In this document: positions 12,978-30,156 of the stretch, one piece after another
How positions within the stretch are numbered: position 1 is the first letter of the stretch
How the letters are laid out: each line of letters opens with the position of its first letter
Notes under the pieces: model-generated
The model's input: the letters and a program-made list of their open reading frames with translations, nothing else
What the model was told of the DNA's origin: nothing
Databases searched by the model: none
Made by a program: the position numbers and the translations under genes
From: a virus
Taxonomy: Duplodnaviria > Heunggongvirae > Uroviricota > Caudoviricetes
Direction: 5' to 3' (one strand)
IMG/VR virus record: IMGVR_UViG_2693429524_000019
Span: 1 to 32,064 of that record
DNA: 32,064 bases

Positions 12978-12980
12978 GTA

Positions 12981-13421: not shown

Positions 13422-13431
13422 TCACTTCCCC

Positions 13432-14577
13432 TTAGCGAACAACGTTAATCTGTACGTCAGCGTAATGAACCGCGCCTGCAAGTTTTATTGCAGCCTGAAT
13501 CACCGGAGCCTTACGGGCTTCACGTTCTGATTGTGCCTGTTCATCCAGCGGCTGGGCGTATACGTAATAACCTTTGGGCAGTGTGTCACCTGATGACAAC
13601 TGACCAAGGTCGCCCCCGTTCCATACGCCCGAAGCAATCAGTCCATTCTGAACGGTCTGATCCAGTGATTTTTCAACATTTGATAACAGTCGGGTAATAC
13701 CGGCTTCAGTCTGGGGAACTTTCGTGGTGCTGGTATAAAGCAGGTTATAGAGGTTGGTCTGCACATAATTCTGTAACCAGTCCAGGCCGTGGCGTTCATC
13801 AAAGAAATCGCCGTTAGCCATCACTCCCTGCTGGAGGATAGCTGTATCATTCTGGTAGTACACGAACACATTGCAGTTTTTTGCATCAAGTGCCGATGCC
13901 TGGCTGACTGTCAGTGTTTCATACCCAACACCCGGCTCCTGCTTAAACTTGAGCGTAATCGCGGTATTACTGCCATTGAAATTAACCGTGAATGCCCGGC
14001 CAAATGCAGATAACGCAGCGTATTTATTACCCGATGAATATTGAATAAAACTGCGTGAATATCCGGCGGTTTTCAGTTTTGATGCCAAATCATCACTGGA
14101 TGCAGTCTGCAGGCATTTCTCATCGCTTGTCGTAATCGCCAGAATACGGCTTACAGAAGAGGATTCGATCGCCGCAGCCACTTTCAGCCAGTCTGCATCC
14201 GGAATATCTTCATCGTCTGCAATCCCCAGCCCATACCATGAAGTATAATCGAGCATGGCATTCACAGCCTGCTCCAGCGTCTCAGTCGTGGCCTGTTCGC
14301 TGTCTCCCCTCGTTTTCACCCAACGACCAACAAAAACCTCCTGAGGTTTCGGTGATTGTGAGAAAAACACCTGCGCAGCCTTATATTCTGGTGATTCCAC
14401 GCCAAAATCTTTTCCAATATCTTCCGCGGCAGAATAACGGCGAATGCGCTCACTTACCGGAATGATTGTGGACGGGCCGAGAATGAGTAATGCACCAAAA
14501 TTTCGCCCTGATGCTGCACGCGGCGACATGATCACATCAACATTAACAACGTTTGATACAGGCAAGCCCTGTGCCAT
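13432..14577 (-). CDS. contractile tail sheath protein
   Basis: 381 aa, size and position upstream of the tube gene. Confidence 0.65.
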
Positions 14578-14580
14578 AGC

Positions 14581-15189
14581 TTAATCTCCGAAAAAGATGA
14601 CTGGTGCTTCCACCAGCGATTTAATACCGTACTCGCGCACAACCTTCCGGCGCAGACGCACCGTCATATCGTAGCGGCGGACCCATTGCTGATTAATAAG
14701 TTCAGGGAAGGGAGTCAGACCTGTGTAATCGCCAAGAGACAGCCCCAGCGCATTCAGTGCTGCGTTGTTCTGCGGTACAGATATACCGTCACGAAACCGG
14801 GACGCATACACCATCCCCGCCGGACCATAAAACGAAGCCATACACTCAATCGTTTCATGCCGCCAGAGCTGAGAGCCATCATCGGTCTGTCTGGTGAATG
14901 CCGGACTGTCATCACCTGACCATCCGATAACCCCAAACGCACACCAGTTCGTTTCAACCGGTAGCAGTGGCGGCTGCTCTTTCTGCCAGCGCGGGCGAAC
15001 CATCCCGGCAGACAGACCGGAAACGTTACGCATCCACTGGCTTAACAGCCTGTCGAGCGCTTCGTCATAATCCGGATCGCCACTGGTTGGTATTAACCAT
15101 CCGCGCTCTGTGCTGGTGTTATTGCTCAACCGGAATTCCCCCATCAAACGGCAGCAACTCACAATGCGCCTGAACGAATCCGGCACCAT
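14581..15189 (-). CDS. tail completion / sheath-terminator-like protein
   Basis: 202 aa; true start uncertain (overlaps upstream gene by 71 nt if ATG at 15189 is used). Confidence 0.35.
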   Translation of the reverse strand: MVPDSFRRIVSCCRLMGEFRLSNNTSTERGWLIPTSGDPDYDEALDRLLSQWMRNVSGLSAGMVRPRWQKEQPPLLPVETNWCAFGVIGWSGDDSPAFTRQTDDGSQLWRHETIECMASFYGPAGMVYASRFRDGISVPQNNAALNALGLSLGDYTGLTPFPELINQQWVRRYDMTVRLRRKVVREYGIKSLVEAPVIFFGD

Positions 15190-15508
15190 ACGCTGTATAT
15201 GGGTCGACGAAAGTCACACGATAATCACGGCCCTGATACGTCACGATATCGGCATCACGGCCAGTCTGTCCCTGCGTCAGTCGCTCAGTCGTCACAATCA
15301 GAATTGCACCGCTGATCACCTGCCCTGCCTGCATACGGCGGTTTTCCAGAGAGCGATCAACAGTTACGACTCCGGCAAACTGCTTTTTAACTTCGCTGTC
15401 GCTGCCGATCCCGTCCTCATCCACCGTTTGCACTCGGCATGTTACCCACAAATTGAAGTCGCAAAAATCGGGGTCAAAAAGCACATCTGTTACATCAAGA
15501 GTCGGCAT
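15119..15508 (-). CDS. head-tail connector (neck) protein
   Basis: 129 aa, position between head and tail modules. Confidence 0.35.
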   Translation of the reverse strand: MPTLDVTDVLFDPDFCDFNLWVTCRVQTVDEDGIGSDSEVKKQFAGVVTVDRSLENRRMQAGQVISGAILIVTTERLTQGQTGRDADIVTYQGRDYRVTFVDPYTAYGAGFVQAHCELLPFDGGIPVEQ

Positions 15509-16049
15509 TTTTATCCCTCACAACATGGGTAATCGCTCTGCGATATTGCCCGGTGTCGATTAGCGGTTTCACCAGATCGGTTCCAGGAGACTCACCAGCA
15601 GCGCGCCGCGCAAGTTCCGCTTTTGCCCCTTTGCGCCCTCGACGTGCACGGGCTTCAACAGTGCTGTCAGCAAGCGGCGTAAAGCCGGTAATAGTCATGT
15701 AACACCTGACGCCATTAGCGGCCAGCGTTCCGGCACGGTTGAGTGCGCGTTCCGCACCCGACGCATTACCATCAAGCGCAGCCTGCGCCGCTGCTTTGAG
15801 CTGCGGCACTGTCTGTCCCTCTACCGATTTAACGCCGGGGGTCAGGTGCGGGCGTGGGGGGATGTTTTGCGCTGGTGAGCCGTATTCGTTGACATAGCCG
15901 ATCCCGGCATTACCAAACGGAACATCTTCACGCTCGCTGTCTTCCGAAGGGATGCCGACCAGCACATCCTTTTTGGTTAGCGACCTGAGCGCATCCAGAA
16001 TGGCCTGAGCGTTATCCACCCTCGTTGTTACACCGCTTTTGAAGCTCAT
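15495..16049 (-). CDS. head-tail joining / head completion protein
   Basis: 184 aa, overlaps neighbours. Confidence 0.35.
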
Positions 16050-16453
16050 AGCTGGCGACCGCCTGCACCAAACATCGTGATCAACTGATAAAATTCAGCG
16101 CCATATCGGGTGTTATTCCAGAAACCTGCATCAGGATTCAGCGTCGCGCTGGTGTCATAACTGACGCTTACCTTATCCACGGACTTTGAGGACTGAACAC
16201 CATTGGTTGAACCGCCAGGGCCGCCAACCAGCATCGCCCGGCTGTCTGCCGCCCAGAGCGTCATGTAGTGTGCAACGAACAACCCGGCAAAGTACGGAAA
16301 CAACTTTTTGCCGGTGACGTTTTCGCTCAGCAGTTCATCGGCCAGATTCAGACGAAACTGGATTTGCGCTTCGGGATATTTGGCAGGGTCAGCAAACTGC
16401 GGGAAGTCGCGGCGAAAATCACTTACCGCTGGCAGACTTTGATTCTTTGGCAT
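16046..16453 (-). CDS. phage head-proximal structural protein
   Basis: 135 aa, coupled. Confidence 0.35.
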
Positions 16454-16640
16454 TTTTTACCTCGTTACGCGCGTCTGTAGCTTTGCCAACGGATACTTCC
16501 GCGTGCGCACGAGTGAACCAGTGCGTGGCAACGTCTTCCTCCACTGCATGACGGCCTTTAACAAACTCGCGCCGAGAACCGTCGGGAAGCGTGAGCACAA
16601 ACGGGGTATGTACGTGTATTACTGCATTATTTTTTGCCAT
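16419..16640 (-). CDS. small phage protein downstream of major capsid gene
   Basis: 73 aa from ATG at 16640 with SD AAGGATGA; the longer track ORF overlaps the capsid gene in another frame. Confidence 0.35.
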
Positions 16641-16680
16641 CGGGTCATCCTTAATGGCCCCGCCAGGGGCCATGTGGCTG

Positions 16681-17622
16681 TTAAATGCCATCAACGTACG
16701 AAATGGTTTCTTTGTACACTGGCTCGACTGCACCCAGCTTGCCGTAGTAAGTGACGATCTGATACAGACCGCGATACTGCACCGGCACGCTCTGAAGCGG
16801 AACCAGCGGGTAGCGGACGTATTTTTTATCGTTGGTGTACGCAACCATGCGATCCTTATTCCCCACACCACGGCCTTTCAGCCATTTAACCGCGCGGATA
16901 TTCAGCGGAACACCGTTCTGGTGATAGCTGATGGTGTTGGTCTGAAGGTACGTCAACAGGGACTGGTTACCCGCAGATGAAACGATGATGCTGGACAACA
17001 GAGCAAACTGCTCAGGCGGGATCAGCAAATCACGCGGAACCACAGAGTAACCGGAAGCGGCCCACGCATCAGACAGCACCTGGTTAATGCTTGCGCGGAT
17101 TTCGTCCGGTGTTGAGGTTGCCCACGTTTTGGCAGCGTTGTTGACAGGCACACCGTCCAGGGTAACAAGGCCTTTCAGGTTTAATGCAGAATCGCCAACA
17201 TATACCTGTTCATCGTTATCCATCTGCCATTTCAGTTGCATACCGTCATACTTCTGCGTATCAATCGGGCGGCCGACCTGCTGAGCAGCCTGCAATTCTA
17301 TGACCGTCCAGCCAAGTTCCATCCCCCACAGGTTCAGCGGGTTACCGGATTTGCCGATATCCACGTTCACGCCAGCAATAGCGGTTGAGTCTTTGCCTAC
17401 CCAGTTTTTGCCATTCGGATTTGCACCAGTACCCGCAGCGGCGAAGCTGGTATTCGTCCAGCTGGAAATGTCATCTGCGATGGAGACATCTTCACGCAGT
17501 TGAATATCGCGGGTCCAGGTGTACCCCACCAGTGGCAGGTTCAGCGTCTGGTCGAGTCGCTCCAGCTCCCCGATGAGAAAGGCACCAGAGCTGTCAACGG
17601 TTGCCTGATCAAAAGTAATCAT
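16681..17622 (-). CDS. major capsid protein
   Basis: 313 aa, position after protease/scaffold and decoration-like genes. Confidence 0.65.
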   Translation of the reverse strand: MITFDQATVDSSGAFLIGELERLDQTLNLPLVGYTWTRDIQLREDVSIADDISSWTNTSFAAAGTGANPNGKNWVGKDSTAIAGVNVDIGKSGNPLNLWGMELGWTVIELQAAQQVGRPIDTQKYDGMQLKWQMDNDEQVYVGDSALNLKGLVTLDGVPVNNAAKTWATSTPDEIRASINQVLSDAWAASGYSVVPRDLLIPPEQFALLSSIIVSSAGNQSLLTYLQTNTISYHQNGVPLNIRAVKWLKGRGVGNKDRMVAYTNDKKYVRYPLVPLQSVPVQYRGLYQIVTYYGKLGAVEPVYKETISYVDGI

Positions 17623-17633
17623 TCGTCTGTTCC

Positions 17634-18140
17634 TTAAATCTTCCAGGAAATTTCTGCATTGCCGTCAGCATCACCGGCACCTGTGAATTCAGCGTTGGTC
17701 AGCACCACGTTTTTGCCACTGACTGACGTGGCCATGAATCCACCCAGCGGCACTTTGATGGATTCATCAGTGGAGACGACAACGTATACCGGGTCGCCTT
17801 TTTTGATGGTGCTGGCATCAAAATCAGAACCGAGATTAACGGTCACGTAGCCACGCTTCATGGCGTCGCCCGGGAAGTTCTTGCCAGTCCCCACCTGGCG
17901 AACCATGTCCGGCTGCGAAGTGGTCGGATAAGGGCGCACGTAGATCCCCTTCACCTTGTCTGCGGTATCACCATCTGCCAGCGGCACGAAAAAACCGTCA
18001 TCATCGTATTTACCAGCCAGGCCATAGGCAGCGAAGGCGTTATCGGATTTAAGGACCACCGGTTCGACGGTTAAGTCCTGCGGGCGAGAGACGGCCCCGG
18101 CAATGCCAACAGGCATCCGGTACAGAAATACATTATTCAT
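17634..18140 (-). CDS. putative head decoration / capsid-associated protein
   Basis: 168 aa between scaffold/protease and major capsid genes. Confidence 0.3.
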   Translation of the reverse strand: MNNVFLYRMPVGIAGAVSRPQDLTVEPVVLKSDNAFAAYGLAGKYDDDGFFVPLADGDTADKVKGIYVRPYPTTSQPDMVRQVGTGKNFPGDAMKRGYVTVNLGSDFDASTIKKGDPVYVVVSTDESIKVPLGGFMATSVSGKNVVLTNAEFTGAGDADGNAEISWKI

Positions 18141-18143
18141 TTT

Positions 18144-19364
18144 TTACCCTTTACGGTTTGCCCAGAATTCAGCGTTTTGTTTGTTCAGGGAAGCGATACT
18201 GGTCATGCCCATGTTTAGGCGCTGTGCATCGCCGGTGGTGGCGCGGGTGTTTCGCCCTTTGGCAATCTCAGACACGGCATTAAACGCCATGTCGACCGAT
18301 TGTTTCGGCAATTTGCGGATATCCGCATCACCGACTATCTGGCGAACCAGCGTTTTGTCAGCGGAAGCCAGAACCTCGCGTTTGAACGCGGTCGGTTTCA
18401 TCTTACGGCTCAGATCGATACCCGGAACAATAACTTCGGCACGCCAGGCTGAGTCACCAGTAATCGTGGTTTCCTCTTCATCGTCCTCGCCGTCACCGGT
18501 CGGATTATCGTCAGGCTTATTATCGTTATCGCCCGTGGCATTTCCTTCCAGCTTAGCCAGCAGGGCTTTCAGTAATGTTTTGAGGTCATCATCACTGTCG
18601 CCGGTTGGACCTCCGCCCATCTCTGGTGCTTTGTCCGGTAGCGGTTGCTGCGGGGACAGGTTGATGTTGAGATTAACGCCCTGCGGCAAATCCCCCTCAT
18701 CTCCTGTAACCGATGCGGGAGCCGACTCCACCAGTTCGTTCATGGTGTCAGCGTCACCCGTTTTGATGGCCGTGCGCATGCGGGTCCACCAGCTTTTCTT
18801 TTGATTTGCCATTGTGTCTCTGTCTCCAATTGCACAACGATTTCCGGCTCTGCCTTTAGGGACAAGAGCCACATGGTTTCCGGTAATATCGACCTGCTCG
18901 GCTTTACCTGGCTCGGTCTGCTCATACTCCGCGTCATAGCCGCACGACACTTCGCGCAGGCCATCTTCGATAAGCTGAATGGCGCTTTCGTCTTTGACGA
19001 TAAGGTCAGCCAGCATCAAATCAGACTGCTCACCCGTCCCGCGCCGGACATTCTGAAGATGCCCGACCGCGAGCTCTTTCCAGTTCTCTGGATTCACCAG
19101 CCGCACATCCCCGTTTTCATCCTCGGGATGCAACACCGTGATACTCATTCCTTCGAATGAGGCAAGCGTGGCGGGATGGAATACCTGCTCAGGAGAACGC
19201 GTGACGACTATTTCACCGAACTTATCGGGTTTCAGTTTTGGCAGGTCATCAGCACCATAGAGCTGCTTACCTGTTCGTCCTATCGGCACGTCTCTGCACA
19301 GCAATGAGCCGTCAGCCAGCTGATAGCGGGTTTCCCCCAGCCGGGTATTGAAAAAATATTTCAT
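18144..19364 (-). CDS. prohead protease / scaffold protein (Mu gpI-like)
   Basis: 406 aa with an acidic low-complexity linker (GDSDDD..DDEEE) and a C-terminal scaffold-like region. Confidence 0.5.
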   Translation of the reverse strand: MKYFFNTRLGETRYQLADGSLLCRDVPIGRTGKQLYGADDLPKLKPDKFGEIVVTRSPEQVFHPATLASFEGMSITVLHPEDENGDVRLVNPENWKELAVGHLQNVRRGTGEQSDLMLADLIVKDESAIQLIEDGLREVSCGYDAEYEQTEPGKAEQVDITGNHVALVPKGRAGNRCAIGDRDTMANQKKSWWTRMRTAIKTGDADTMNELVESAPASVTGDEGDLPQGVNLNINLSPQQPLPDKAPEMGGGPTGDSDDDLKTLLKALLAKLEGNATGDNDNKPDDNPTGDGEDDEEETTITGDSAWRAEVIVPGIDLSRKMKPTAFKREVLASADKTLVRQIVGDADIRKLPKQSVDMAFNAVSEIAKGRNTRATTGDAQRLNMGMTSIASLNKQNAEFWANRKG

Positions 19365-19378
19365 GTGTTACCTGCGAT

Positions 19379-20152
19379 TCAGGCGGGATAAGATTGGGAG
19401 GTGGGAAAAACGATTTCTTTATAACAGCGACAATTCGGGAGCTCGCCAGCGTGACCTGTCATGCCGTCAAGCGTTGGAGGTTTGCCCCATTCGACAAATT
19501 TACCTTCCATTTCCCGATGAGAATGCCTGACGTCACCATCTTCGGCTGTACGCCAGATATAACCATTCGAACCAATTGACAGCGCACGTGCCTGATCCAG
19601 CGCGCCGGTTGCACGTCCAAGTTCAGTACGGGCAATCAGGTCAGCTCTGGACTTTGCTATATCACCCGATGCGGCTATTTCTTTAGCAAAATGTTCCGCT
19701 CGCCCACCGGTCACAACAGCTTCAATCGCCCGATTCTGGATGTCGTACACCCTGTCAGCCGCCTCGAGGGGTAGCGATTTAATGTACTTAACCTGTTCAG
19801 CAACGATGGATTTCATCACCTGCCCTGGCGGGGCACTGTTTACCAGATTGCGTAGCTCACGGCTGATGGTTTTGCTGTGTTTACGCCACTGCTCATCATT
19901 CTTGCGCACAATATCGGCGGTAAAGTTTTCCGCGACCTTTGTCGCCCAGGGGGTGATGATTTCACTGTAGCGTTCCAGCGCCTCAATAATTTCCGTGATA
20001 CTGTCATTTGAACCATCGTAGTGACCATTTACGATGTCCCCGACCGCCCGCGCTATCCTGCGTAGGCTGGTTCGATACCGGATTTCCGCCTGACGGTTCC
20101 TGCGGTTCGTCACCAGGTTCGCCGATGCCGGGCGGCGCTTCATCTTCGGCAT
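19379..20152 (-). CDS. head morphogenesis protein (Mu F / SPP1 gp7 family)
   Basis: 257 aa, follows portal gene; start overlaps the portal 3' end by ~149 nt. Confidence 0.55.
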   Translation of the reverse strand: MPKMKRRPASANLVTNRRNRQAEIRYRTSLRRIARAVGDIVNGHYDGSNDSITEIIEALERYSEIITPWATKVAENFTADIVRKNDEQWRKHSKTISRELRNLVNSAPPGQVMKSIVAEQVKYIKSLPLEAADRVYDIQNRAIEAVVTGGRAEHFAKEIAASGDIAKSRADLIARTELGRATGALDQARALSIGSNGYIWRTAEDGDVRHSHREMEGKFVEWGKPPTLDGMTGHAGELPNCRCYKEIVFPTSQSYPA

Positions 20153-21470
20153 TCTTGATGTCCTCGTCGGTAATGGATGCCCCGATGCCGGTTACGTCAG
20201 AATTTTCTCGCAAATCAGTCATAGCGGCTTTCAGTGTCATCAGACCATCACCCAGCGCTGTACTGATTGCGTTGGTGGTGTTTAACGCCACCGTTGAGCG
20301 ATCGACATCAGACATTTGCCAGAGCGGGTTAAACTCAAACGTGAAATCGTCCGGCAGTGGTTTGCCAAGTTCCGAACGATGCATGATATCCAGTATCCGC
20401 CGCACCGGAAGACGTAAACGTCTCTCCTGCAGCGAGCTTACCCGGTCGTAATAGTTGGCAAGGTCTGCATCACCGGTAGAAAATCCCTTCGGGGACTGTC
20501 CGAACAACCGCACCAGTGGGATACCAACAGCGCCACTAATCTGTTCTGCAAACTGTGAAAGGATGTCATCCAGACCACTGAAGCTGTACTGATGGGTTTC
20601 AAACTTATCCCGCGAGTCCATGAGCGTCATGCCTTCATTGCTCTGGAACTGTCGAATCAGGTCGATATTCTTCAGCAACGCTTCATACGCAGGACCACCA
20701 AGTGCGATAAGCTCGCGTAGCTTCTCCACGCTGTAGGTACGCAAATGCGCCTTGTAGACCAGCTGCGCCGCGCCGACAGTAGCGCTGTCGAACGCGGTAA
20801 GACGATCCCAGATACGCTCTACAACCGACATTCCCCATTCGTTCTCGGTCATCTTCTGCTGGAATGGCAGCGTGACGCCATCAAAGCGAATCAGACGACT
20901 GTGATGAATGCGCCAGGCAGGAATGCCCGTTGCTGTGGTCACCACATCGTAAAACTCAGGTTTACCCAGGTCCGGCCCCATATCTTTAATGCGGCGGGTC
21001 AGTACCGGGTCAATCATCCAGCGGTCGAGCGGGAGAATCCCCTTAAACTTGCCTTTACCGATGGTTTCGGGTCGCAGCGGGGTCATTGGTGCCTGCCCCT
21101 CAATCATGATGAAACCCACCGCGCCGCCGTAGAGGCGCGACCATTTCAGCACGTCATTCAGCGCATCCCAGATTTGCAACTCATCCAGTTGTGATTCTAG
21201 AATGCCACGATCTTTTGCATCAATTTCCGAAGTAATGCGAATGCCTTTGCGGGTCATATCATCCGGGATAGCATCGACTGCTTCGCCGATAATCCAGGAT
21301 GAACGATAGGACCATTCCACCAGCATGCGGTTACGACTGGTGAAATTAGCCCGATAGGTGGATGCTGAGTGCTGGTTAGGTGTCTGCATCCCTACGCGGG
21401 CAATAAAATTCTCATAACCATCAGCTGTGGCCTGCGCAGTTCGCCGCAGGGCTTGTTTGTTTCGTGCCAT
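20004..21470 (-). CDS. portal protein
   Basis: 488 aa, ATGA overlap with the terminase large subunit stop; acidic proline-rich C-terminus. Confidence 0.7.
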   Translation of the reverse strand: MARNKQALRRTAQATADGYENFIARVGMQTPNQHSASTYRANFTSRNRMLVEWSYRSSWIIGEAVDAIPDDMTRKGIRITSEIDAKDRGILESQLDELQIWDALNDVLKWSRLYGGAVGFIMIEGQAPMTPLRPETIGKGKFKGILPLDRWMIDPVLTRRIKDMGPDLGKPEFYDVVTTATGIPAWRIHHSRLIRFDGVTLPFQQKMTENEWGMSVVERIWDRLTAFDSATVGAAQLVYKAHLRTYSVEKLRELIALGGPAYEALLKNIDLIRQFQSNEGMTLMDSRDKFETHQYSFSGLDDILSQFAEQISGAVGIPLVRLFGQSPKGFSTGDADLANYYDRVSSLQERRLRLPVRRILDIMHRSELGKPLPDDFTFEFNPLWQMSDVDRSTVALNTTNAISTALGDGLMTLKAAMTDLRENSDVTGIGASITDEDIKNAEDEAPPGIGEPGDEPQEPSGGNPVSNQPTQDSAGGRGHRKWSLRWFK

Positions 21471-22873
21471 CAGGCCTGTCTCCCCAGCTGTTCCCAGATA
21501 TCCAGCGATGTATCAATTGGCGCGAAGGCCATAATGAATGCGTCAGCAACGTTTGGTGACAGTATCTCGCGTTTTGCGAGGTCTTTTTTACTTTCGACCA
21601 TCACACGTCCGTTACGGTCAAAATCGCGATGAGGTGTTGTCAGTTCCAGTTTCAGCTTTTCAAGCAACGGACAACGAGAATCTATGCTGATCAGCTCATC
21701 CACAGGATACTGTTCTCCGTTGTTAATGGCGTTAAACGTATTTCTGAAACGGTCAGCCACCAGCCACCATGCCTGAGCCTTAAGATTTGCGAAAAAGTCT
21801 TTGTTGGGGATGCCGTTGTATTCGTCATCTGGCTCATGCACACCAGCACCGGCGTTAAACCTCTGGTAATTCACTCGTCTCGCGTATGCATTCTCGCTCT
21901 TCCGGTCAGCGTTAATTTCAGAGAATTTAGCACCGGCAGACGCACCAACACCGATAGAGTCGTAAACAATATCTGCTTCACGCTCCAGCGCCGCCTGATA
22001 AGTACGCTGGCAGCTCTTCAGTAATTCATCTTCTTTGGCCTTCCATTCGTCGGCCCAGAAAACAACGGATCCGTGACGGTAAACGTTAGCGCACTTATCT
22101 GTACCACTGTCAGCCACGTCAAAGCCAATACGCTTTCTTCCACTGGGTTCGAAATTTAACGTTTTGTGCGCATCCACTGCGGCTTCTATCCAGGACAGTT
22201 TGATGATTGCCGCATCATCATCAGACTCCGGAACGCCCTCATACACATGTTTAAAACCATCCGGATCACGGCGTCGCGCCGCGTCGATAACCTTAAGCAT
22301 GGTGTCAGACAGAAACGGATTTTCGTCATAGTTAATTTTGCGGATGAGAGTGCCTTCGGGCGGATCAACAACGAAGTTGCGCCAGACGAAATCAGTAACC
22401 AGTCCGGGGTTGAATATGAACCAGCATTCCGACCCCTCTTTACGGATCGTTGGCTCCAGAATTTTCCACTGGTATTCCGTCAGTGCGTGGGCTTCTTCCA
22501 GCCACAACACATCGATCCCCTCCAGTGACTTAATTTCTTCGATGTTGCGCCATAATCCATAAAAAACAAATTCCGAGCCAGTAACCCGGTTAATGATTTT
22601 GTTGTTCAGAATACGGAAACGGTGCCGCAGGCCAAACCTGTCTATCTGAATTTTGAGCAGGGTATACACCGACTCTTCGATTTTGTTCTGGATCTGACGG
22701 GCACAACAAAAACGCAGGGTGTATTTATTCGACAGAAATATGGCAATGCCAGCGGCATCCCATGATTTTGACGATGACCGGCCACCATAAAGCACTTTGT
22801 TACGTGCCCGCGTAGTCCAGAAACTACGTAAAGCCGGATTAAGCGTCGGTTTGGATGTCAGAGTAGAAGTCAT
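21470..22873 (-). CDS. terminase large subunit
   Basis: ~467 aa from ATG at 22873; Walker A-like GGRSSSKS near the N-terminus. Confidence 0.8.
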   Translation of the reverse strand: MTSTLTSKPTLNPALRSFWTTRARNKVLYGGRSSSKSWDAAGIAIFLSNKYTLRFCCARQIQNKIEESVYTLLKIQIDRFGLRHRFRILNNKIINRVTGSEFVFYGLWRNIEEIKSLEGIDVLWLEEAHALTEYQWKILEPTIRKEGSECWFIFNPGLVTDFVWRNFVVDPPEGTLIRKINYDENPFLSDTMLKVIDAARRRDPDGFKHVYEGVPESDDDAAIIKLSWIEAAVDAHKTLNFEPSGRKRIGFDVADSGTDKCANVYRHGSVVFWADEWKAKEDELLKSCQRTYQAALEREADIVYDSIGVGASAGAKFSEINADRKSENAYARRVNYQRFNAGAGVHEPDDEYNGIPNKDFFANLKAQAWWLVADRFRNTFNAINNGEQYPVDELISIDSRCPLLEKLKLELTTPHRDFDRNGRVMVESKKDLAKREILSPNVADAFIMAFAPIDTSLDIWEQLGRQA

Positions 22874-23588
22874 TGAGGTCACGCTCTCCATTGCCATCAT
22901 CAATACCTGCATCACGGCGAAGACGATCAGCCTCCAGAGACACCTTATCAGTGGCGGCCTTGCGGTAGGCTGTATCAGCAAATATTTTTCCTACCGTCGC
23001 AAGCGTGCCAACGATGGACTCAATACGAACTGTATTGCGCATCATTGCTTTCTCGGCGGCGCTGATATTTTCCATCAGCATCTTCCTTTCCTGGTCCCCA
23101 TTAGCATCTTCCAGCGACACCAGCCACCGACCAATATTCTCTGCAGCGACAAGGTTGTTAGCACGAAGGCGAAATAATTCGTCCTCGAGCGTCAACGCTT
23201 TAGCGTCCTCTATCACCTCATCTTTGAGCAGAAGGCGACGGGCATAACCACCGTGTTTTAATGCCTGCTGGTTACCGGGTTGGAATGGGTTAGTCGGGGG
23301 ATCGGTACGCATTCCGCGTATCGGTTTCGTATCCGGTGTAGCTTCTGTTTTTGGTTGCGTACCTTTTTGTGTAAGGCCAGTAATGGCAGGCTTTCTGCTG
23401 GTACGCACTTTTCTTTTTTGCGTACCATTTTTGCAAACCTGCGTACCGCCACTGCGTACCCAACCAAGCTTTTTAGCCCTCTTCCTGATAGCCCCTTCTG
23501 TTACGCCGTATTTCTCGCCTATATCACGGAGGCTAAGGACTCCGGCCCGGTATGCCGATTCGATGGCCTCCCAGTCCGGTTTTGCCAT
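22839..23588 (-). CDS. terminase small subunit
   Basis: 249 aa, SD AAGAGGAAA; N-terminal HTH-like region and ..NPFQPGNQQALKHGGY.. motif typical of small terminase subunits. Confidence 0.6.
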   Translation of the reverse strand: MAKPDWEAIESAYRAGVLSLRDIGEKYGVTEGAIRKRAKKLGWVRSGGTQVCKNGTQKRKVRTSRKPAITGLTQKGTQPKTEATPDTKPIRGMRTDPPTNPFQPGNQQALKHGGYARRLLLKDEVIEDAKALTLEDELFRLRANNLVAAENIGRWLVSLEDANGDQERKMLMENISAAEKAMMRNTVRIESIVGTLATVGKIFADTAYRKAATDKVSLEADRLRRDAGIDDGNGERDLNDFYSDIQTDA

Positions 23589-23645
23589 GAATTTTTCCTC
23601 TTAGTGACATTATCGAAGCCCCTTATCAAAGGAGCTTCTGTAATG

Positions 23646-23831
23646 TCAGTCCCGAACGAACGTAACCTTCGTGTTTGTCGCTCGCCGTACAAGGCGCGCC
23701 GCTTCGCGTTGCATTTCATCGATAACTTTTGGCGTCATCGGCTGATGCGCATATTTACGTTCAATCTCTGCAAAAATCCCGTTCATCGTTTCGATGTCTG
23801 GTGGGATAACTTCAACGTTTAATCGTGCCAT
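23646..23831 (-). CDS. small hypothetical protein between lysis and packaging genes
   Basis: 61 aa from ATG at 23831; protein-like composition; weak SD. Confidence 0.3.
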   Translation of the reverse strand: MARLNVEVIPPDIETMNGIFAEIERKYAHQPMTPKVIDEMQREAARLVRRATNTKVTFVRD

Positions 23832-24090
23832 TAGTTTGTGCTGCCCTGTTTTTCTCAAAAGTCCTGATATCAGCCTTATCCCTGTTGCACTGTGCTAACG
23901 CTGACAACAACGCAACATTCAGGTTAAGGCTGGCTCCCCACGTAAACGGGTCGGGTAAATCTGGCTGGGGTGTTTCATCCGTCAGACTGGCTGGTAACGG
24001 AACGACCGGCACCGACACGTATACCGTTCGCGTACTCGTGCAACCGCTTAACTGCGCCAGAAGGAACGATACGAACAGCGCAATCATCAT
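23812..24090 (-). CDS. o-spanin Rz1 (outer-membrane lipoprotein), overlapping the 3' end of Rz in another frame
   Basis: MMIALFVSFLLAQLSGC lipobox followed by a proline-rich segment PVVPLPASLTDETPQPDLPDP. Confidence 0.5.
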   Translation of the reverse strand: MMIALFVSFLLAQLSGCTSTRTVYVSVPVVPLPASLTDETPQPDLPDPFTWGASLNLNVALLSALAQCNRDKADIRTFEKNRAAQTNGTIKR

Positions 24091-24367
24091 CCGCAACAGC
24101 CACTTTGATATCTTCCTGGGTTCTCTGTGACTCCAGTGCGATCTGCTGTTTTGCATGCTGGTTAGCCTCTATAACTGTGTTGATGATTTGCAGTGATTGC
24201 AGGACGTTACGGGTAATGGCTGTTGCTGATTCAGCATTTCGTACAGCCTCATCAGCGCGCTCCTTTTCGTGCTGATATTTGCTGTAGTAATGCCCGGCAG
24301 ACCAGATAAAAGAACCGATGACGGTAACAAAGAAGGCAACAATAACCAGCTTATATCTCAGCTTCAT
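23975..24367 (-). CDS. i-spanin Rz
   Basis: 130 aa, N-terminal transmembrane anchor KLVIVAFFVTVIGSFIW then coiled-coil; directly downstream of the endolysin. Confidence 0.65.
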   Translation of the reverse strand: MKLRYKLVIVAFFVTVIGSFIWSAGHYYSKYQHEKERADEAVRNAESATAITRNVLQSLQIINTVIEANQHAKQQIALESQRTQEDIKVAVADDDCAVRIVPSGAVKRLHEYANGIRVGAGRSVTSQSDG

Positions 24368-24827
24368 TTACCACCCCACCAGCTTCTTTAAATCGGGAAA
24401 TCAGGTCACCGATTCTATGTTCATACTGACCGTAACCTGCACCAGGTAACGACGCCCAGATATTGCTGCAACGGTCGATTGCCTGACGAATATCGCCGCG
24501 GTCAATCATCGGTAAAGCGCCACGCTCTTTAATCTGCTGCAGCGCTACAGCATCCTGGCTTTCTGGAGAAAAATCTTTCAGACCAAGTTGCTTGCGGTAG
24601 GCATCCCACCAGCGTGAAAGAAGCTGGTAACGTCCGGCGGCTGTTGATTTGAGTTTCGGATTTAGCGTGACAAGTTTGCGAGGGTGATCGGAGTAATCAG
24701 TGAACAGTTCGCCACCAACAATAACATCATAACCGTGGTTACGTGTCGGTTGTCGCCCGTTATCCGTTCCTTCTGACCATGCCACCATATCAAGGAAAGC
24801 TTTACGCTGGGAATTAAGTGTCTGCAT
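24351..24827 (-). CDS. endolysin, lambda R-type lytic transglycosylase
   Basis: 158 aa closely matching recalled lambda R (..NSQRKAFLDMVAWSEGTDNGRQPTRNHGYDVIVGGELFTDYSDHPRKLVTLNPKLKST..); strong SD AAGGAG. Confidence 0.85.
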   Translation of the reverse strand: MQTLNSQRKAFLDMVAWSEGTDNGRQPTRNHGYDVIVGGELFTDYSDHPRKLVTLNPKLKSTAAGRYQLLSRWWDAYRKQLGLKDFSPESQDAVALQQIKERGALPMIDRGDIRQAIDRCSNIWASLPGAGYGQYEHRIGDLISRFKEAGGVVNEAEI

Positions 24828-24830
24828 TAA

Positions 24831-25190
24831 TTACTCCTTATGGGCACCGAACTTGTTACCGATGACCCTCATTGCCGCACCACGAATAGCATCAACACCA
24901 ATCAGCCCCACCCCACCACCAATGGCAACAGAAAGTGATTTAGGCCATCCGACATACTCAAGCGCGGATGCAAAGGTCAGCGTCAGGGCACCACAGAGCA
25001 AAATCTCAAGCGTTTTTCGTTTCCAGCCCCCACCACCGCCAAAATAGGCGATGCGCAAACCAGCCATAACGATCGACATAATCACTGCACCCAGCGGTGT
25101 GTCTCCACGCCACCAGCTCTGAAACAACTCCAGCCAGTCCGGCCAGGTATTTGGGTTATGAGGCATTTCATCATCTCTCACCTCGCACAT
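24831..25190 (-). CDS. holin, three predicted transmembrane helices (class I), possible dual start
   Basis: ATG at 25190 and second ATG at 25166 eight codons later; three hydrophobic segments; immediately upstream of the endolysin. Confidence 0.6.
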   Translation of the reverse strand: MCEVRDDEMPHNPNTWPDWLELFQSWWRGDTPLGAVIMSIVMAGLRIAYFGGGGGWKRKTLEILLCGALTLTFASALEYVGWPKSLSVAIGGGVGLIGVDAIRGAAMRVIGNKFGAHKE

Positions 25191-25289
25191 ATCGCGGGTG
25201 CAAATTGAGGGAATAAAAAATCCCCGAATATTCCAGGAGCGGAAACGGGGAAAGGCGTTGCACTAAATGGGCCTGTCTGCGGCCTTAAA

Positions 25290-25318
25290 TAAAAAAACCC
25301 CGGCAAATGCCGAGGTCA
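25290..25318 (-). terminator. strong intrinsic terminator ~100 bp upstream of the holin gene
   Basis: minus strand CCTCGGC-ATTT-GCCGGGG (7-bp stem) followed by seven T. Confidence 0.65.
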
Positions 25319-25527
25319 GTTAATCGTTGCCGCTGTGAGTGCCGCGGTGCACTATCTCTTTATCAGGCTACTTACGCGTTAAACCGGGTGCCAACCGTAA
25401 CTCAGTGATGCTTTACGCTTCCTCTCCCTCACTACGTCGCCATGGGAGCCCGACCAGATTAACGCTGTCGTCACGTTGCCAATATATGGCATCCAATGCA
25501 TTCTTTTTATTTAGCTATTTCATTTTT

Positions 25528-25558
25528 CTATCCGTCAGAAACAACAAAACCCGCTCAA
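25528..25558 (-). terminator. intrinsic terminator downstream of the ORF6N-like gene
   Basis: minus strand AACCCGCCATTGAGCGGGTT followed by TTGTTGTTTCT. Confidence 0.5.
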
Positions 25559-25662
25559 TGGCGGGTTCTGGTAAAGTTCATGCGCTTGGTTCGCCTCGCG
25601 ATACAGCTTTGCGAAGCGTACCGAAATTGAAGCAGTTTATGGCTAAAATTGCAAGAACTTTT

Positions 25663-26214
25663 TTAAAGCTGCATCAGCCTTTCCACCAGTTTATCTCTGC
25701 GAACAACAAACCAACCATTGGCTCTCGCCAGTTCCAGCCATGACTCAAGGGAAATAACAATATCATCATCCCGCAACTGAATTGTGGAAACAGTGACACC
25801 GCCTCGCTGATAACAGAGAACTCGCGTGTCGTAACTTTTCTGGCATGAAGCTGGCGCTGACAGATCCTTTTGTCTGAAATAGCAGTCTTCCAGTTTTTCG
25901 AACACTTCCCACGCCTGATCGGTTTCCAGCATTTTGGCGTGGCGGGCTGCTCCGCGTTCTGTCCAGAGTATAAGCGAGCGGGTTTTGGGCGAAATTTGTA
26001 ACTGACTTACTGTCAGTCGCAAATTTTTAAGCTCCTCGCCCATAACCTTAAAAAAATGTTTACCTTCAATAAAACGCACAGAGTTGCGCTTATGATTTTG
26101 CTGGATACTGTTTACATCCGCGCCATAGAGGTGCGCCAATAGTTCTGTGGTAATAACTGGGATCTGATTATGGGTAATTGGGGAAAGGTTTTCGACAGAA
26201 ATTTGAGTCGTCAT
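25663..26214 (-). CDS. ORF6N/antirepressor-like DNA-binding protein (moron between Q and lysis genes)
   Basis: 183 aa, SD GAGGG; N-terminal ..ITTELLAHLYGADVNSIQQNHKRNSVRFIEGKHFFKV.. resembles ORF6N-type phage antirepressor N-domains as recalled. Confidence 0.4.
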   Translation of the reverse strand: MTTQISVENLSPITHNQIPVITTELLAHLYGADVNSIQQNHKRNSVRFIEGKHFFKVMGEELKNLRLTVSQLQISPKTRSLILWTERGAARHAKMLETDQAWEVFEKLEDCYFRQKDLSAPASCQKSYDTRVLCYQRGGVTVSTIQLRDDDIVISLESWLELARANGWFVVRRDKLVERLMQL

Positions 26215-26375
26215 GATAACGCCCTCTGGTTGATGAATTTAACTATCACCACCGTCAGGTTCCAATCATTGGGTGGTGAGACGTACAGGGTTGGAACTAC
26301 CGGATCAACCAACCGGCGAGCCTTTCGGCTCCCCCATACGCCCCACCATAATTCAGATGTGCGTGTGCTTACGAC

Positions 26376-26400
26376 AATAAAAAACACGCTCGCGGCGTGT
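26376..26400 (-). terminator. intrinsic terminator ~90 bp downstream of Q (tR'-like candidate)
   Basis: minus strand ACACGC-CGCGA-GCGTGT followed by TTTTTATT. Confidence 0.5.
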
Positions 26401-26488
26401 ATCTGTCGCGGTTGAATATCCGGGGTTCCAATCCCGACGCCAGATTTTGCTGGCGCGTGAGGAATATAGCCCCGGATAACAGATTGAG

Positions 26489-27043
26489 TCAACAGACGGT
26501 TTTTGAATCCCCGGAAGAGAATGCATCACGCATCGGCAGATAGAGCATAAACTCTGCCATTTTCAACCACGCATCTATGCGATTACGGCACGTGGCGTAA
26601 CACCACTCAGGGTGTGCGTCATTCAGCAATTCAGCCATTTTTCGCTTAGTCATCCCCCTCCCTTCATATCGTTGCCGGAGGATACAAATCAATCCTGGGT
26701 GTTCTGCCAGCACTTCACTAATCACACGATCAATGCATAACGCCTCTGCATCAGTACAATGCACCAGCCAGCTTTTTTGCTTGCCGTTGATCATATCCCG
26801 CAAAAAAGCCTCAAGTTCAGGTTTGTCCAGCCCTGCTTTTTTCATCCTCCGGAGCGCCTCGTTAATTGCCGTTTTTGTCAGCTTTTTAGAGGTCAGCAAC
26901 TGGTTAAACATATTTCCCGTCTTACCGCCGCCAATATACGACCAGCGCCCCCACATGCGCAGTTTTCCCTGAATCCAGACACTTTCCAGCGTGGTGAGAC
27001 GAAGGTGTTCCCCGCTTTTGCCTGTATTTGTTGGGTAAATCAT
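26489..27043 (-). CDS. late-gene antitermination protein Q-like
   Basis: 184 aa from ATG at 27043 (ATGA overlap with the ybcO-like stop); ..KLRMWGRWSYIGGG.. and the position upstream of the lysis genes fit the Q family; family assignment from memory only. Confidence 0.55.
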   Translation of the reverse strand: MIYPTNTGKSGEHLRLTTLESVWIQGKLRMWGRWSYIGGGKTGNMFNQLLTSKKLTKTAINEALRRMKKAGLDKPELEAFLRDMINGKQKSWLVHCTDAEALCIDRVISEVLAEHPGLICILRQRYEGRGMTKRKMAELLNDAHPEWCYATCRNRIDAWLKMAEFMLYLPMRDAFSSGDSKTVC

Positions 27044-27330
27044 AAATAACCTTCCTTTCTCCAGATTTCTTGCGTACGAAAAACACCTTCTGCATGCATC
27101 AGGCGTAATTCTTCTTTGGTGTAATCGCTGGTTTTTACCCGCCCGTCGATTAAATCGTGGCATGAGCTGCAGGCAATCGCTGCCTGCATATCGTGTGGTT
27201 TTGTCGCTGTTCCGCACGTCCCCGCCAGCCTGTAATGCGCCAGCACAGATGTTTCGGGATTGTGATTGCAGTAGCCAAGAATTCTGACGGTGCACATCTG
27301 CCCCCGCGCCGCTTTACGTAAATCCACCAT
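27040..27330 (-). CDS. YbcO-like protein (DUF1364, putative nuclease)
   Basis: 96 aa MVDLRKAARGQMCTVRILGYCNHNPETSVLAHYRLAGTCGTATKP..CSSCHDLIDG resembles recalled YbcO Cys pattern. Confidence 0.6.
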   Translation of the reverse strand: MVDLRKAARGQMCTVRILGYCNHNPETSVLAHYRLAGTCGTATKPHDMQAAIACSSCHDLIDGRVKTSDYTKEELRLMHAEGVFRTQEIWRKEGYL

Positions 27331-28395: not shown

Positions 28396-28420
28396 AACAA
28401 AAAACCCGCCGAAGCGGGTT
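28396..28420 (-). terminator. intrinsic terminator at the 3' end of the hok transcript
   Basis: minus strand AACCCGC-TTCG-GCGGGTT followed by TTTTTTGTTG. Confidence 0.55.
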
Positions 28421-28488
28421 AAGTGCGGGTGCGTTGAGGATGCCTGACACATGAGAGGTGGCGAGGGATTTTTCCCCCGCCTGGTCTC

Positions 28489-28644
28489 TTACTCCTCAGA
28501 TTCGTAAGCTGTGAAGACAGCGACCTCCGTCTGGCCGGTACGGATTCGTACCTCGCAGAGGTCTTTCCTCGTTACCAGTGCCGTCGCTATGACGGTTAAA
28601 CAGATGACGATCAGGGCGATTAACATCGCCTTTTGCTGCTTCAT
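28489..28644 (-). CDS. hokD: Hok/Gef family type I membrane toxin, HokD (RelF)-like
   Basis: 51 aa MKQQKAMLIALIVICLTVIATALVTRKDLCEVRIRTGQTEVAVFTAYESEE, near-identical to recalled HokD; SD AAGGAGAAG upstream. Confidence 0.8.
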   Translation of the reverse strand: MKQQKAMLIALIVICLTVIATALVTRKDLCEVRIRTGQTEVAVFTAYESEE

Positions 28645-28854
28645 AGCCTGCTTCTCCTTGCCTTTCGGCACGTAAGAGGCTAACCTACATTTGTGAGACA
28701 TAGATTGGGCCTCAGATTAATGTTAAGCGTCCTGCAAGACGCGTAATGTTAACTGGGGCTTTTCTCTATCTGCCGTTGGTGTTCATGCCTGAGGCAGATA
28801 GCCTCAAGCACCCGCAGCAATTCTACTTAACTCTCCTTTTCCCGCAAACCGTTT

Positions 28855-28938
28855 TTATCCCCAGCGGCAAATCGAATACACAATCAGCGCCACCGCCATT
28901 GCGATTCCTACCGTTGTGAATGCTTCAGGCCAGGTCAT
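28855..28938 (-). CDS. candidate 27-aa hydrophobic peptide (single TM), translationally coupled to upstream gene
   Basis: MTWPEAFTTVGIAMAVALIVYSICRWG; ATG overlaps the stop of the 191-aa gene (ATGA); GGAGG 10 nt upstream; not in the ORF track because it is under 60 aa. Confidence 0.3.
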   Translation of the reverse strand: MTWPEAFTTVGIAMAVALIVYSICRWG

Positions 28939-29510
28939 CGTAAAATATCCTCCGCGCTTATCAGTCCGTTTCGCTTCAGGTAGACCATCGCCTTCTCCGG
29001 TAATTTGCAGTTCGGCTTCGCTTTCCTCAATTGGCTAGCCAGTTGTTTAATCAGCATTGTTAATTCCCGTACCTGAACGTCCCCTTTGGTATCCTCATTG
29101 GTGAGGATACCATCGCCTTTCCCCTGAAGCATGGCGGCGCAGCAGGCGTTCCATGAGATTTCCTGAAGGGAGCGACGAATCTGTGTGCTGCATATACTCC
29201 TCCCTGACTCCTGGCTGTTAAACCATGTTTCAAATTCCGGCACTACCGTCGCTGGCGGGGCGGTGTAAAGTGGAACAACTCGCCCTCCCCATTGCTTAAC
29301 ACTACTCTCAGCGAACACTAAATGCTCAGCCCGATAATACCCGGGGGCATCAATATCTTTTCTTTCGCTATCCCACATGTAAACCACCGGCTCTGCTTCC
29401 AGCGATGCCAAAGCAATCCGTGCCACTTCCATTTGTTCGCTACGAGTAAGCCCGTTTTCAAGCGGATTTTTAATGAACAATTCAATACGTTCTTTGGTGA
29501 TAGCGTTCAT
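28935..29510 (-). CDS. hypothetical phage protein (paralog A)
   Basis: 191 aa, SD AAGGAA; shares RIALASLEAEPV and PLY..PPA motifs with the next gene. Confidence 0.5.
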   Translation of the reverse strand: MNAITKERIELFIKNPLENGLTRSEQMEVARIALASLEAEPVVYMWDSERKDIDAPGYYRAEHLVFAESSVKQWGGRVVPLYTAPPATVVPEFETWFNSQESGRSICSTQIRRSLQEISWNACCAAMLQGKGDGILTNEDTKGDVQVRELTMLIKQLASQLRKAKPNCKLPEKAMVYLKRNGLISAEDILR

Positions 29511-29513: not shown

Positions 29514-29936
29514 TCATTCCTTAACCTGCAACTGCTTCTTAACCAGTTTACGTAGATGTGCCACAGCCATAGAAAGAGTTTCCACCGCTCGTTTATCCAG
29601 CTGTGGGGACAGAGACACCAGTTCGTTTATTGCGATCTCAATTCCCTGTGCCTGCACTATGGGAGCTGGCGGCACACGATACAGCGGAATTACACGACGC
29701 GGGTCTGCGTATTTATCTGGAGGACAAGGTAATAAATAACCTAAACCAATTTGCTCAACATCTCGCAGTTCCTCGTCATCAGTCCATGCAACTGGTTCTG
29801 CTTCCAGCGAGGCCAGCGCGATACGAAACGCATCAGCAAGCAGACTGTTTGATGATTGGTTATCGTGCGCCGGGTCGCTCAGGAAGCCAGTGATGAATGA
29901 TTTAATCTCCGCGCTTTCTCTGGTAATGGTGGTCAT
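29514..29936 (-). CDS. hypothetical phage protein (paralog B)
   Basis: 140 aa from ATG at 29936 with SD AAGGAAA; contains RIALASLEAEPVAW and PLYRVPPAP. Confidence 0.5.
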   Translation of the reverse strand: MTTITRESAEIKSFITGFLSDPAHDNQSSNSLLADAFRIALASLEAEPVAWTDDEELRDVEQIGLGYLLPCPPDKYADPRRVIPLYRVPPAPIVQAQGIEIAINELVSLSPQLDKRAVETLSMAVAHLRKLVKKQLQVKE

Positions 29937-29937
29937 T

Positions 29938-30156
29938 TCAGTTTTCCTTATATGGATTAATTTTATTGTGCAGTGCGTTGAACGACGCCCATACCACGTC
30001 GTTATACAATTCAATAACGGGCTCAATTACTTTTCCGATTATCCAGGCCAGTAATAGCGGGGATATCGGTATCATCAACACGATAAACAGAATGAGAAAC
30101 AAAAATTCTGTCGCTCTACTTTTTCGCGGATATTTTTTTCTGAATAATGTAGTCAT
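29938..30156 (-). CDS. small membrane protein (basic N-terminus plus one TM helix)
   Basis: 72 aa MTTLFRKKYPRKSRATEFLFLILFIVLMIPISPLLLAWIIG..; AT-rich. Confidence 0.4.
   Translation of the reverse strand: MTTLFRKKYPRKSRATEFLFLILFIVLMIPISPLLLAWIIGKVIEPVIELYNDVVWASFNALHNKINPYKEN

Follow-up and report, generated by a model that had tools for sequence, protein, structure and literature searches.

A probable 27-codon membrane-microprotein gene of temperate enterobacterial phages, coupled to the preceding gene and independent of the adjacent hok/sok locus

Small single-pass membrane modulators such as KdpF, AcrZ, MgtS, MgrB, CydX and PmrR have fewer than 50 residues and consist of little more than one transmembrane helix with short polar caps. 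The helix carries a small-residue packing face, and the genes are routinely missed by annotation (for such proteins see PMC12648545). An open reading frame (ORF) of the same kind is situated on the minus strand of a 32,064-nucleotide (nt) stretch of a Caudoviricetes genome (IMG/VR record IMGVR_UViG_2693429524_000019, positions 1 to 32,064), the whole of which is called the window below. The ORF has 27 codons, runs from an ATG to a TAA codon and reads as MTWPEAFTTVGIAMAVALIVYSICRWG. Comparison of its homologues makes it likely that this is a real gene, encoding a membrane microprotein, coupled to the gene upstream and independent of the hok/sok locus downstream.

The small ORF has no sequence relationship to the modulators named above. 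Unlike them it is phage-borne and multicopy, and it is coupled as the final cistron, or one close to the end, of accessory early operons instead of accompanying a cognate transporter or sensor operon. The Hok/Gef toxins are also small hydrophobic membrane peptides borne by phages or plasmids, and a hok gene is adjacent to the small ORF in the window and in phage 933W. The peptide, however, lacks the HOK_GEF domain and is about half as long. Its gene lacks a mok-like leader frame and a Sok-like antisense RNA as well as the conserved hok leader and 3' pairing elements, and a strong ribosome-binding site takes the place of the occluded translation of hok. IbsC (19 amino acids, aa), ShoB (26 aa), DinQ (27 aa) and TisB (29 aa) are similar in size and hydrophobicity. 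These toxins have their own promoters, long structured 5' untranslated regions and antisense RNAs, and they occupy chromosomal, not operon-terminal, positions. None of these regulatory features is seen at the small ORF, and the peptide shows no similarity to NCBIfam or Pfam families.

The small ORF shares its neighbourhood, and presumably its delayed-early timing, with the lambdoid early accessory proteins (orf60a, orf61, orf63, orf73, Ea22 and Ea8.5 of the exo-xis region; Kil and CIII). Like these it is non-essential, mosaic and poorly characterised. It differs from them in being neither named nor studied in that literature, in its much smaller size and in being the sole member that is purely a transmembrane helix. 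The exo-xis or 'ea' regions affect the induction of Shiga toxin (Stx) prophages and host physiology (PMC4195576, PMC10789677).

In the surrounding 3 kb, 48 ORFs of 20 aa or more can be counted. Taken alone the small ORF is therefore unremarkable, and comparison had to decide. Homologues have 55-100% amino acid identity to the peptide, and nearly all of them have exactly 27 codons. With the peptide as query, tblastn gave matches in 95 phage records at identities of 55-96%; in 92 of these records the match was near full length. Using the 84 nt as a blastn query, the ORF was located in 1632 of 5426 complete E. coli genomes (about 30%), with at most seven copies in each and with 163 places on plasmids. 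The plasmid records found by tblastn (196) belong to Escherichia, including E. albertii and E. fergusonii (166), Salmonella (29) and Klebsiella (1). Of these plasmids 188 are non-mobilizable and their typical size is 90-100 kb, which would make them P1-type phage-plasmids, judging from size and mobility class. The abundance of short ORFs, and the fact that neither PGAP nor most phage annotators report this one, would suit a chance ORF that is passively carried and not expressed. The probability of this is negligible in the face of the homologues, the fixed length, the coding signature, the edges of the conserved block and the preservation of the frame, which are described below.

The length of the ORF is fixed. 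Although the search pattern left the distance between its ends free from 45 to 65 nt, the exact 78-nt span was found in 111 of 120 viral matches, versus 2 of the 120 chance matches listed from a species-level genome collection. The degenerate-pattern scan of that collection gave chance matches in unrelated GC-rich genomes and was used only as a control for spacing; no family member is among the 120 matches listed, a result that is uninformative on taxonomic range. Two high-GC ORFs caught by the pattern (L074 and L110) share no context with the family and were treated as chance or unrelated matches. Length variants are rare (24 and 25 aa) and all of them are in frame. The 24-aa variant, MSWPEAFAIVGVAMAIAAIFIFWG, occurs in two IMG/VR records (L015 and L066), where the upstream protein ends in …AVWRLEVR, the start and stop codons overlap as TAATG and the ribosome-binding site is GAGGTG. 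It lacks the C-R-W motif, showing that the C-terminal anchor is not strictly required.

The conserved block has sharp edges. Upon aligning 59 distinct combinations of flanks on the ATG codon, the mean pairwise identity was found to be about 0.35 in the flanks, 0.80 at -12 to -7, where the ribosome-binding site is located, and 0.72-1.00 across the 84 nt. It falls to 0.37 in the first interval after the stop codon, from the first base onwards. Alignment columns 0-17 and 72-77 are partly fixed by the search pattern, while columns 18-71 and 78-83 are unconstrained. The unit that is conserved over the 59 contexts thus consists of the ribosome-binding site and the ORF. The same edges are seen in genome comparisons. 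In a megablast of 1.2 kb against phage genomes, 933W and its relatives match, with 93% identity, from the exact ATG of the ORF (28938; query position 663). The counterpart in 933W, MTWPEAFANVGTVMAVVLVVYSICRWR, has an intact frame; the gene before it, L0139, differs from the one in the window but again ends in an ATGA overlap. Thousands of hok loci in complete E. coli genomes match only from around the stop codon of the ORF (starts at 28860 or 28833), and a second group of matches starts at the ATG, behind DUF551 genes.

Breakpoints of phage homology exactly at both ends, as would be anticipated for boundaries at which lambdoid modules are exchanged, and the contact with the hok promoter in the window might also be expected if the 84 nt were a nucleic-acid element with an incidental frame, such as a recombination linker, a hok regulatory element or a structured RNA. 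The way in which the 84 nt vary makes this very improbable. The coding analysis drew upon 52 unique DNA sequences, which translate into 32 unique peptides. The entropies of codon positions 1, 2 and 3 are 0.545, 0.311 and 0.991 in codons 7-24, which are unconstrained by the pattern, the second position being the most conserved. The substitution events reconstructed by Fitch parsimony on a neighbour-joining tree number 38, 36 and 98 by codon position. The events in codons 7-24 comprise 66 synonymous and 73 non-synonymous ones, against a neutral expectation of 74.7% non-synonymous (binomial p=1.4e-8). The pairwise ratio of non-synonymous to synonymous variation (pN/pS) is 0.42 in the frame of the ORF, and 0.74 and 1.79 in the other sense frames, which have stops in 52 of 52 sequences. 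Amino acid replacements are conservative swaps between hydrophobic residues, the stop codon is exchanged from TAA to TGA and the start codon from ATG to GTG (the latter in a different upstream setting) with function kept, and insertions and deletions stay in frame. The ORF is thus conserved under purifying selection acting on the protein. The check proposed in the earlier note, conservation of the frame with substitutions biased towards synonymous ones, is positive.

At the level of RNA no conserved structure was found: the consensus fold has an energy of -1.8 kcal/mol with essentially no covariation, and the ORF of the window folds no better than shuffled sequence (z=+0.74). No Rfam family covers the small ORF. 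Furthermore, 70 of 99 IMG/VR copies have no hok downstream, which is hard to reconcile with a hok regulatory element.

The preservation of the frame was surveyed without bias in 120 loci located through the hok promoter sequence that directly follows the stop codon, a procedure that is blind to the ORF itself. An intact, ATG-started ORF of 27 codons is present in 91 of these loci, an intact ORF with a GTG start in two and an in-frame deletion of two codons in one. Six copies are broken, and 20 loci have no upstream homology at all. Three of the broken copies have a nonsense codon at Trp3, two share a 1-nt deletion in codon 2 and one has a 1-nt deletion in the last codon. A few matches in E. 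coli genomes span 83 or 85 nt. The small ORF, intact in 94 of 100 hok-adjacent copies, is preserved about as well as hok itself, intact in 98 of 105 of the same loci, with the occasional loss that is seen in accessory prophage genes. The earlier note had named a frame broken between conserved neighbours as the observation that would speak against a gene. This occurs, but rarely (six of 100 hok-adjacent copies and Shigella phage POCJ13), and it fits the loss of an accessory gene, not a sequence that was never a gene. The gene is accessory, being absent from many phages and occasionally inactivated.

The nonsense codons at Trp3 (TGG to TAG or TGA) are found behind different upstream genes in three IMG/VR copies (L251, L254 and L322) and in POCJ13 (L006), which has TAG at codon 3 (position 1207-1209). 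TGG is the only type of codon in the ORF that is one transition away from a stop, which explains the hot spot. The Trp3 knock-outs are therefore probably a matter of mutational opportunity, but selection against the product in some hosts might also play a part.

The junction with the upstream gene is the second conserved property. All elements that the earlier note had read from the window (the 27-codon ORF, the ATGA overlap, the GGAGG and a hydrophobic core) are present, on the minus strand. The ATG of the ORF shares bases with the TGA of the 191-aa upstream gene. The GGAGG is 10 nt away from the ATG, a slightly long spacing; the commonest sister lineages have AGGAGGT at 7 nt. In a census of 99 IMG/VR copies with sufficient flanking sequence, start and stop codons overlap in 94 (81 as ATGA and 13 as TGATG or TAATG), and nearly all have a GGAGG-type site at a distance of 7-10 nt before the start. 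Among the upstream proteins at least four unrelated C-terminal tails occur (…EPPQEVNQ, …ISAEDILR, …DDRQEVNQ and …NIEQEVNR). The arrangement for coupling that had been noticed in the window alone is thus a property of the family, with the stop/start overlap and a Shine-Dalgarno sequence inside the upstream coding sequence (CDS) retained despite the change of upstream gene. The upstream gene itself (the 191-aa gene, DUF551, Ea22, EaA or others) is variable and is not a conserved partner of the small ORF.

Downstream there are about ten different continuations, including hok, the DUF4222-type gene of YYZ-2008, two other genes and several terminator-like hairpins. In the window and in a relative with 100% identity, the ORF is located between accessory early genes and hok, followed by the nin-type genes DUF1367, DUF1364 and DUF1133. 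In 933W it is found two genes after an Ea22/EaA homologue. ArgO145 has a hypothetical gene upstream and a toxin-antitoxin pair on the opposite strand downstream. In YYZ-2008, PhiR12_1 and PhiR5_1 the ORF follows DUF551 or Ea22, and a 243-nt gene begins 5 nt after its stop codon, followed by a small ORF and int; the 243-nt gene is annotated as DUF4222 in YYZ-2008, and xis is annotated in YYZ-2008 and PhiR5_1. In POCJ13 the upstream gene is EaA and the downstream genes are hypothetical and on the opposite strand.

Whether the junction reads ATGA or TGATG, the ORF follows the upstream gene in the -1 frame. One could imagine that ribosomes undergo a programmed -1 frameshift near the overlap and so append the ORF, as a C-terminal membrane anchor, to a fraction of the upstream protein. 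A strong internal Shine-Dalgarno sequence can stimulate frameshifting, as in dnaX and prfB. Within the DUF551 lineage about 18 codons ahead of the ORF are free of stops in the -1 frame, some gene callers give versions of 40-57 aa, and a weak match to phrog_4612 covers the last 25 positions of that 57-residue profile. Nevertheless, neither of the main junctions (…GAG GAT ATT TTA CGA TGA and …CAG GAG GTG AAT CAA TGA) contains a slippery heptamer, and an ATG or GTG start is present at the same position in essentially all copies. In some copies the stop codon of the upstream gene is in frame and immediately precedes a GTG start, or it lies 4 nt ahead of the start. Conservation does not exceed background on the 5' side of the ribosome-binding site, and in the lineage of the window at least the 20 codons before the ORF are devoid of another in-frame start. 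Frameshifting has a very slender probability, and initiation at the overlapping start codon is preferred.

The peptide can be segmented into three parts: residues 1-6 (M-[TSN]-W-P-[ED]-A), a 19-residue hydrophobic core (residues 6-24) and a C-terminal end (residues 25-27, R-W-[G]). The core in the window has a mean Kyte-Doolittle value of 2.13, with one acidic residue on its N-terminal side and one arginine on its C-terminal side. The mean values for the cores of the family are 1.85-2.63, and the charges are -1 on the N-terminal side and +1 or +2 on the C-terminal side, a distribution that weakly favours an N-out, C-in orientation. At the positions unconstrained by the search pattern, G11 is conserved in 31 of 32 peptides, A15 in 30, A17 in 28, I23 in 31 and C24 in 31; position 21 is Tyr or Phe and position 13 is Ala or Val. 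Residues Y21-S-I-C24 form a conserved segment. G11xxxA15 and the residues A13 and A17 make up a small-residue face typical of transmembrane helix packing. With at most 50 aa and one predicted transmembrane helix, the product has the characteristics of a small single-pass membrane protein. The single-helix gene suggested by the earlier note is in this respect supported by the homologues, the coding signature and the hydrophobic core, as far as sequence can tell.

The peptide has no significant match in Pfam, NCBIfam, PADLOC or the PDB. The sole model that responds, KdpF of NCBIfam (TIGR02115), gives 13.1 bits against a cut-off of 26.85 (E=0.073), and the context is a phage accessory operon; the peptide does not qualify as a KdpF. 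Nor does it qualify as a member of Hok/Gef (PF01848), the domain of which has about 50 aa, a conserved Cys and a polar periplasmic tail. The 57-aa phage family phrog_4612 gives a weak partial match (E=0.011, profile positions 33-57 of 57), which the 933W variant lacks. This match probably reflects over-extended calls of the same ORF, comparable to the 40-57 aa database entries described below.

A short hydrophobic peptide could also act by damaging the membrane. As a type I-toxin-like or holin-like peptide it would oligomerise in the inner membrane once the early operon is turned on, dissipate the membrane potential and so contribute to host shut-off or to the killing of cells with a de-repressed prophage. 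The size and hydrophobicity, like those of Ibs, ShoB, TisB and DinQ, agree with this (27 aa with a 19-residue core), the small-residue face could equally drive self-association, and the repeated nonsense mutations at codon 3, in backgrounds independent of one another, might have been selected because the product is harmful. In addition, the ORF is often located beside toxin-antitoxin loci (hok in the window and in 933W, and another pair in ArgO145). Known type I toxins, however, have tightly repressed translation and a dedicated antisense RNA. The small ORF has a strong, exposed GGAGG and a start codon overlapping an ordinary upstream gene, and there is no conserved sequence outside the ribosome-binding site and ORF that might encode an antitoxin RNA or a promoter, nor a conserved RNA structure. 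No Hok/Gef model and no PADLOC, NCBIfam or Pfam toxin model matches, mutational opportunity alone accounts for the codon 3 nonsense mutations, and genomes tolerate up to seven copies. A toxin is therefore unlikely.

The hok/sok locus next to the ORF is a neighbour. The mok/hok frame matches Pfam HOK_GEF (PF01848) with E=4.3e-23, and the Rfam sok model (RF01794) places the hok leader with a score of 116 bits (Table 1). The stop codon of the small ORF is found 42 nt before the start of this leader, confirming the position directly upstream of it that had been noticed earlier. The hok promoter was assigned by its spacing to the Rfam match starting at 28813 and is below the threshold of a simple promoter scan; its -35 box is 6 nt from the stop codon. 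A terminator-like hairpin is present at 28403-28420, after hok. The interval 28399..28813 (-), with the inferred promoter before it, has the parts of a complete HokD-like hok/sok locus: leader and Sok target, mok, hok and the terminator-like hairpin. A sub-threshold Rfam match to the Gifsy-1 small RNA IsrK (33.8 versus 50 bits) extends over the 3' end of hok and the terminator, at 28399..28480. The homologous hok stretch of 933W is annotated as mokW/hokW/sokW.

Table 1. Positions of the small ORF and of neighbouring features in the window
Feature	Positions	Strand	Details
Small ORF	28855..28938	(-)	ATG 28938-28936, TAA 28857-28855; predicted single-pass membrane microprotein
Shine-Dalgarno GGAGG	28949..28953	(-)	Inside the last codons of the upstream gene (…AEDILR)
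Upstream 191-aa accessory early gene	28935..29510	(-)	phrog_660; no Pfam match; TGA 28937-28935
Inferred hok promoter	28820..28848	(-)	-35 TTTGCG 28848-28843, 17-nt spacer, -10 TAGAAT 28825-28820
hok/sok type I toxin-antitoxin locus	28489..28813	(-)	Leader and Sok target 28639..28813; mok 28489..28701; hok 28489..28644

The ORF and hok are distributed independently. In the census hok is downstream of the small ORF in 29 of the 99 copies, and 20 of the 120 hok-anchored loci have a hok promoter with no small ORF upstream. The ORF ends before the leader begins and its conservation stops at the stop codon, so that it is not a component of hok/sok. The link to hok suggested in the earlier note is thus not borne out: the two are side by side in the window by coincidence, and hok/sok is functionally unrelated and lies outside the conserved cassette.

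The ORF has largely escaped annotation. There is no same-strand CDS at its position in the records of 933W, Stx2 phage I, ArgO145, YYZ-2008, POCJ13, PhiR12_1 and PhiR5_1, and no CDS in a P1-size plasmid of 99 kb or in two RefSeq E. coli genomes, one of which is 100% identical over the ORF. In POCJ13 the only CDS that overlaps it is on the opposite strand. Using a 40-aa padded query and exact look-ups, sporadic entries of exactly 27 aa, named 'bacteriophage protein' or 'hypothetical protein', were found in GenBank and the protein databases, together with over-extended versions (40-57 aa) whose start is placed within the upstream gene, in a different frame. The earlier description of the ORF as unannotated is therefore correct for the records compared here, but not for GenBank as a whole, where these entries are scattered. 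Some fragments of the peptide or wrong-frame extensions (P0013, P0017, P0028, P0036 and others) are labelled 'DUF551 domain-containing protein, partial'. These labels and the associated clustering look like artefacts of the overlap with DUF551 genes. A 90% cluster shared with an unrelated 121-aa DUF551 representative was discarded as an artefact of clustering and naming, the two having no sequence in common.

Searching the literature for the peptide strings gave no paper other than one on crop economics, a coincidental match. The exo-xis papers do not mention such an ORF. In the main text of a preprint on small proteins of uropathogenic E. coli, the passages returned for the context keywords prophage, hok, transmembrane and DUF551 contain no such ORF. 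The peptide appears to be a member of no described family and to have no description in the searchable literature.

Two other features of the window touch on the surroundings of the ORF. The genes at 28935..29510 (-) and 29514..30026 (-), both upstream of it, are tandem partial paralogues with a common N-terminal motif, …RIALASLEAEPV…, and have mosaic PHROGs matches (phrog_660, 60, 5117, 924 and others) and no Pfam family. They would fit modular accessory proteins of the Ea22/ead kind. On the opposite strand, a 57-aa ORF at 28746..28919 (+) covers the hok promoter and the greater part of the small ORF; it was treated as a chance ORF. The two reverse frames that are not wobble-aligned, one of which is the frame of this 57-aa ORF, contain stops in 14 and 37 of the 52 homologues. 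Further away, in positions 1..27300, most long ORFs are on the minus strand, and hok and the nin-type genes (DUF1367) are followed by a series of large tandem ORFs. Judging from the layout of the ORFs alone, this looks like a complete prophage late region (lysis, packaging, head and tail). Assuming that it is, the small ORF of the window is situated in the rightward delayed-early region, not beside int/xis as in Stx phages.

Several observations weigh against a real and expressed membrane-microprotein gene. A pN/pS of about 0.4 indicates no more than moderate constraint. The wobble-aligned antisense frame has an equally low pN/pS of 0.37 and is open in 51 of the 52 sequences, so that this statistic by itself does not distinguish the strands. 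A gene in the antisense frame was considered and rejected: the low value is a mirror effect of selection on the sense strand, there is no start codon before 28916 in the window and the flanks are not conserved. About 6% of the copies are inactivated, with nonsense at Trp3 in several backgrounds. Many copies are in near-identical E. coli prophages, making the effective sample smaller than the counts suggest. The insertion energy of the core is borderline, at -1.9 to +1.6 kcal/mol (Hessa 2005 scale). The peptide is absent from the supplements of a ribosome-profiling study of enterohaemorrhagic E. coli Sakai and of a survey of Enterobacteriaceae microproteins. Finally, the modulator mechanism considered next is argued by analogy alone.

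The mechanism that we favour starts from a minimal cassette of ribosome-binding site and 27 codons, which is spread among temperate enterobacterial phages. The cassette is placed at or near the distal end of strings of accessory delayed-early genes, such as the 'ea'/exo-xis region of Stx and lambdoid phages, the region upstream of hok and the nin-type genes in the window and the DUF551 regions of P1-size plasmids. Ribosomes finishing the preceding gene would re-initiate at the overlapping ATG, where the internal GGAGG would recruit or retain them. The peptide would then be made whenever the preceding delayed-early operon is expressed. The product would be little more than one transmembrane helix in the inner membrane, consisting of a W-P-E/D cap, the 19-residue core and an R-W anchor. 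The helix might pack against that of a host or phage membrane protein and modulate this protein during the early lytic programme. Such modulation by helix packing is put forward tentatively, in analogy to the small membrane proteins introduced above, as quite possible but short of probable. Rather more doubtful is the proposal that the family consists of phage single-helix microproteins that bind to one specific host inner-membrane machine and re-tune it soon after induction or infection. The candidate targets in that case, named with the same reserve, would be a transporter, a sensor kinase, a protease or a DNA-entry route.

The result corrects the impression that the small ORF belongs to hok/sok. 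It is not conceptually surprising, and its interest rests on how prevalent the ORF is, on its occurrence in Stx phages and on its location in regions linked to prophage induction. If the peptide is made, a phage accessory gene that ranks among the most widespread in E. coli, Shigella and Salmonella is being missed by annotation pipelines; its carriers include the Shiga-toxin phages 933W and VT2-Sakai. It would provide a compact test case for translational coupling and for the way in which small transmembrane proteins find their targets. If a host machine is indeed re-tuned, the exo-xis/'ea' accessory regions, the effectors of which are poorly understood, would gain an effector directed to the membrane. 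Prophage induction and host physiology change when these regions are deleted or overexpressed, and the small ORF was never considered in the constructs concerned. Owing to its overlap with the stop codon before it, the ORF may have been cloned or deleted along with genes of the 'ea22' type.

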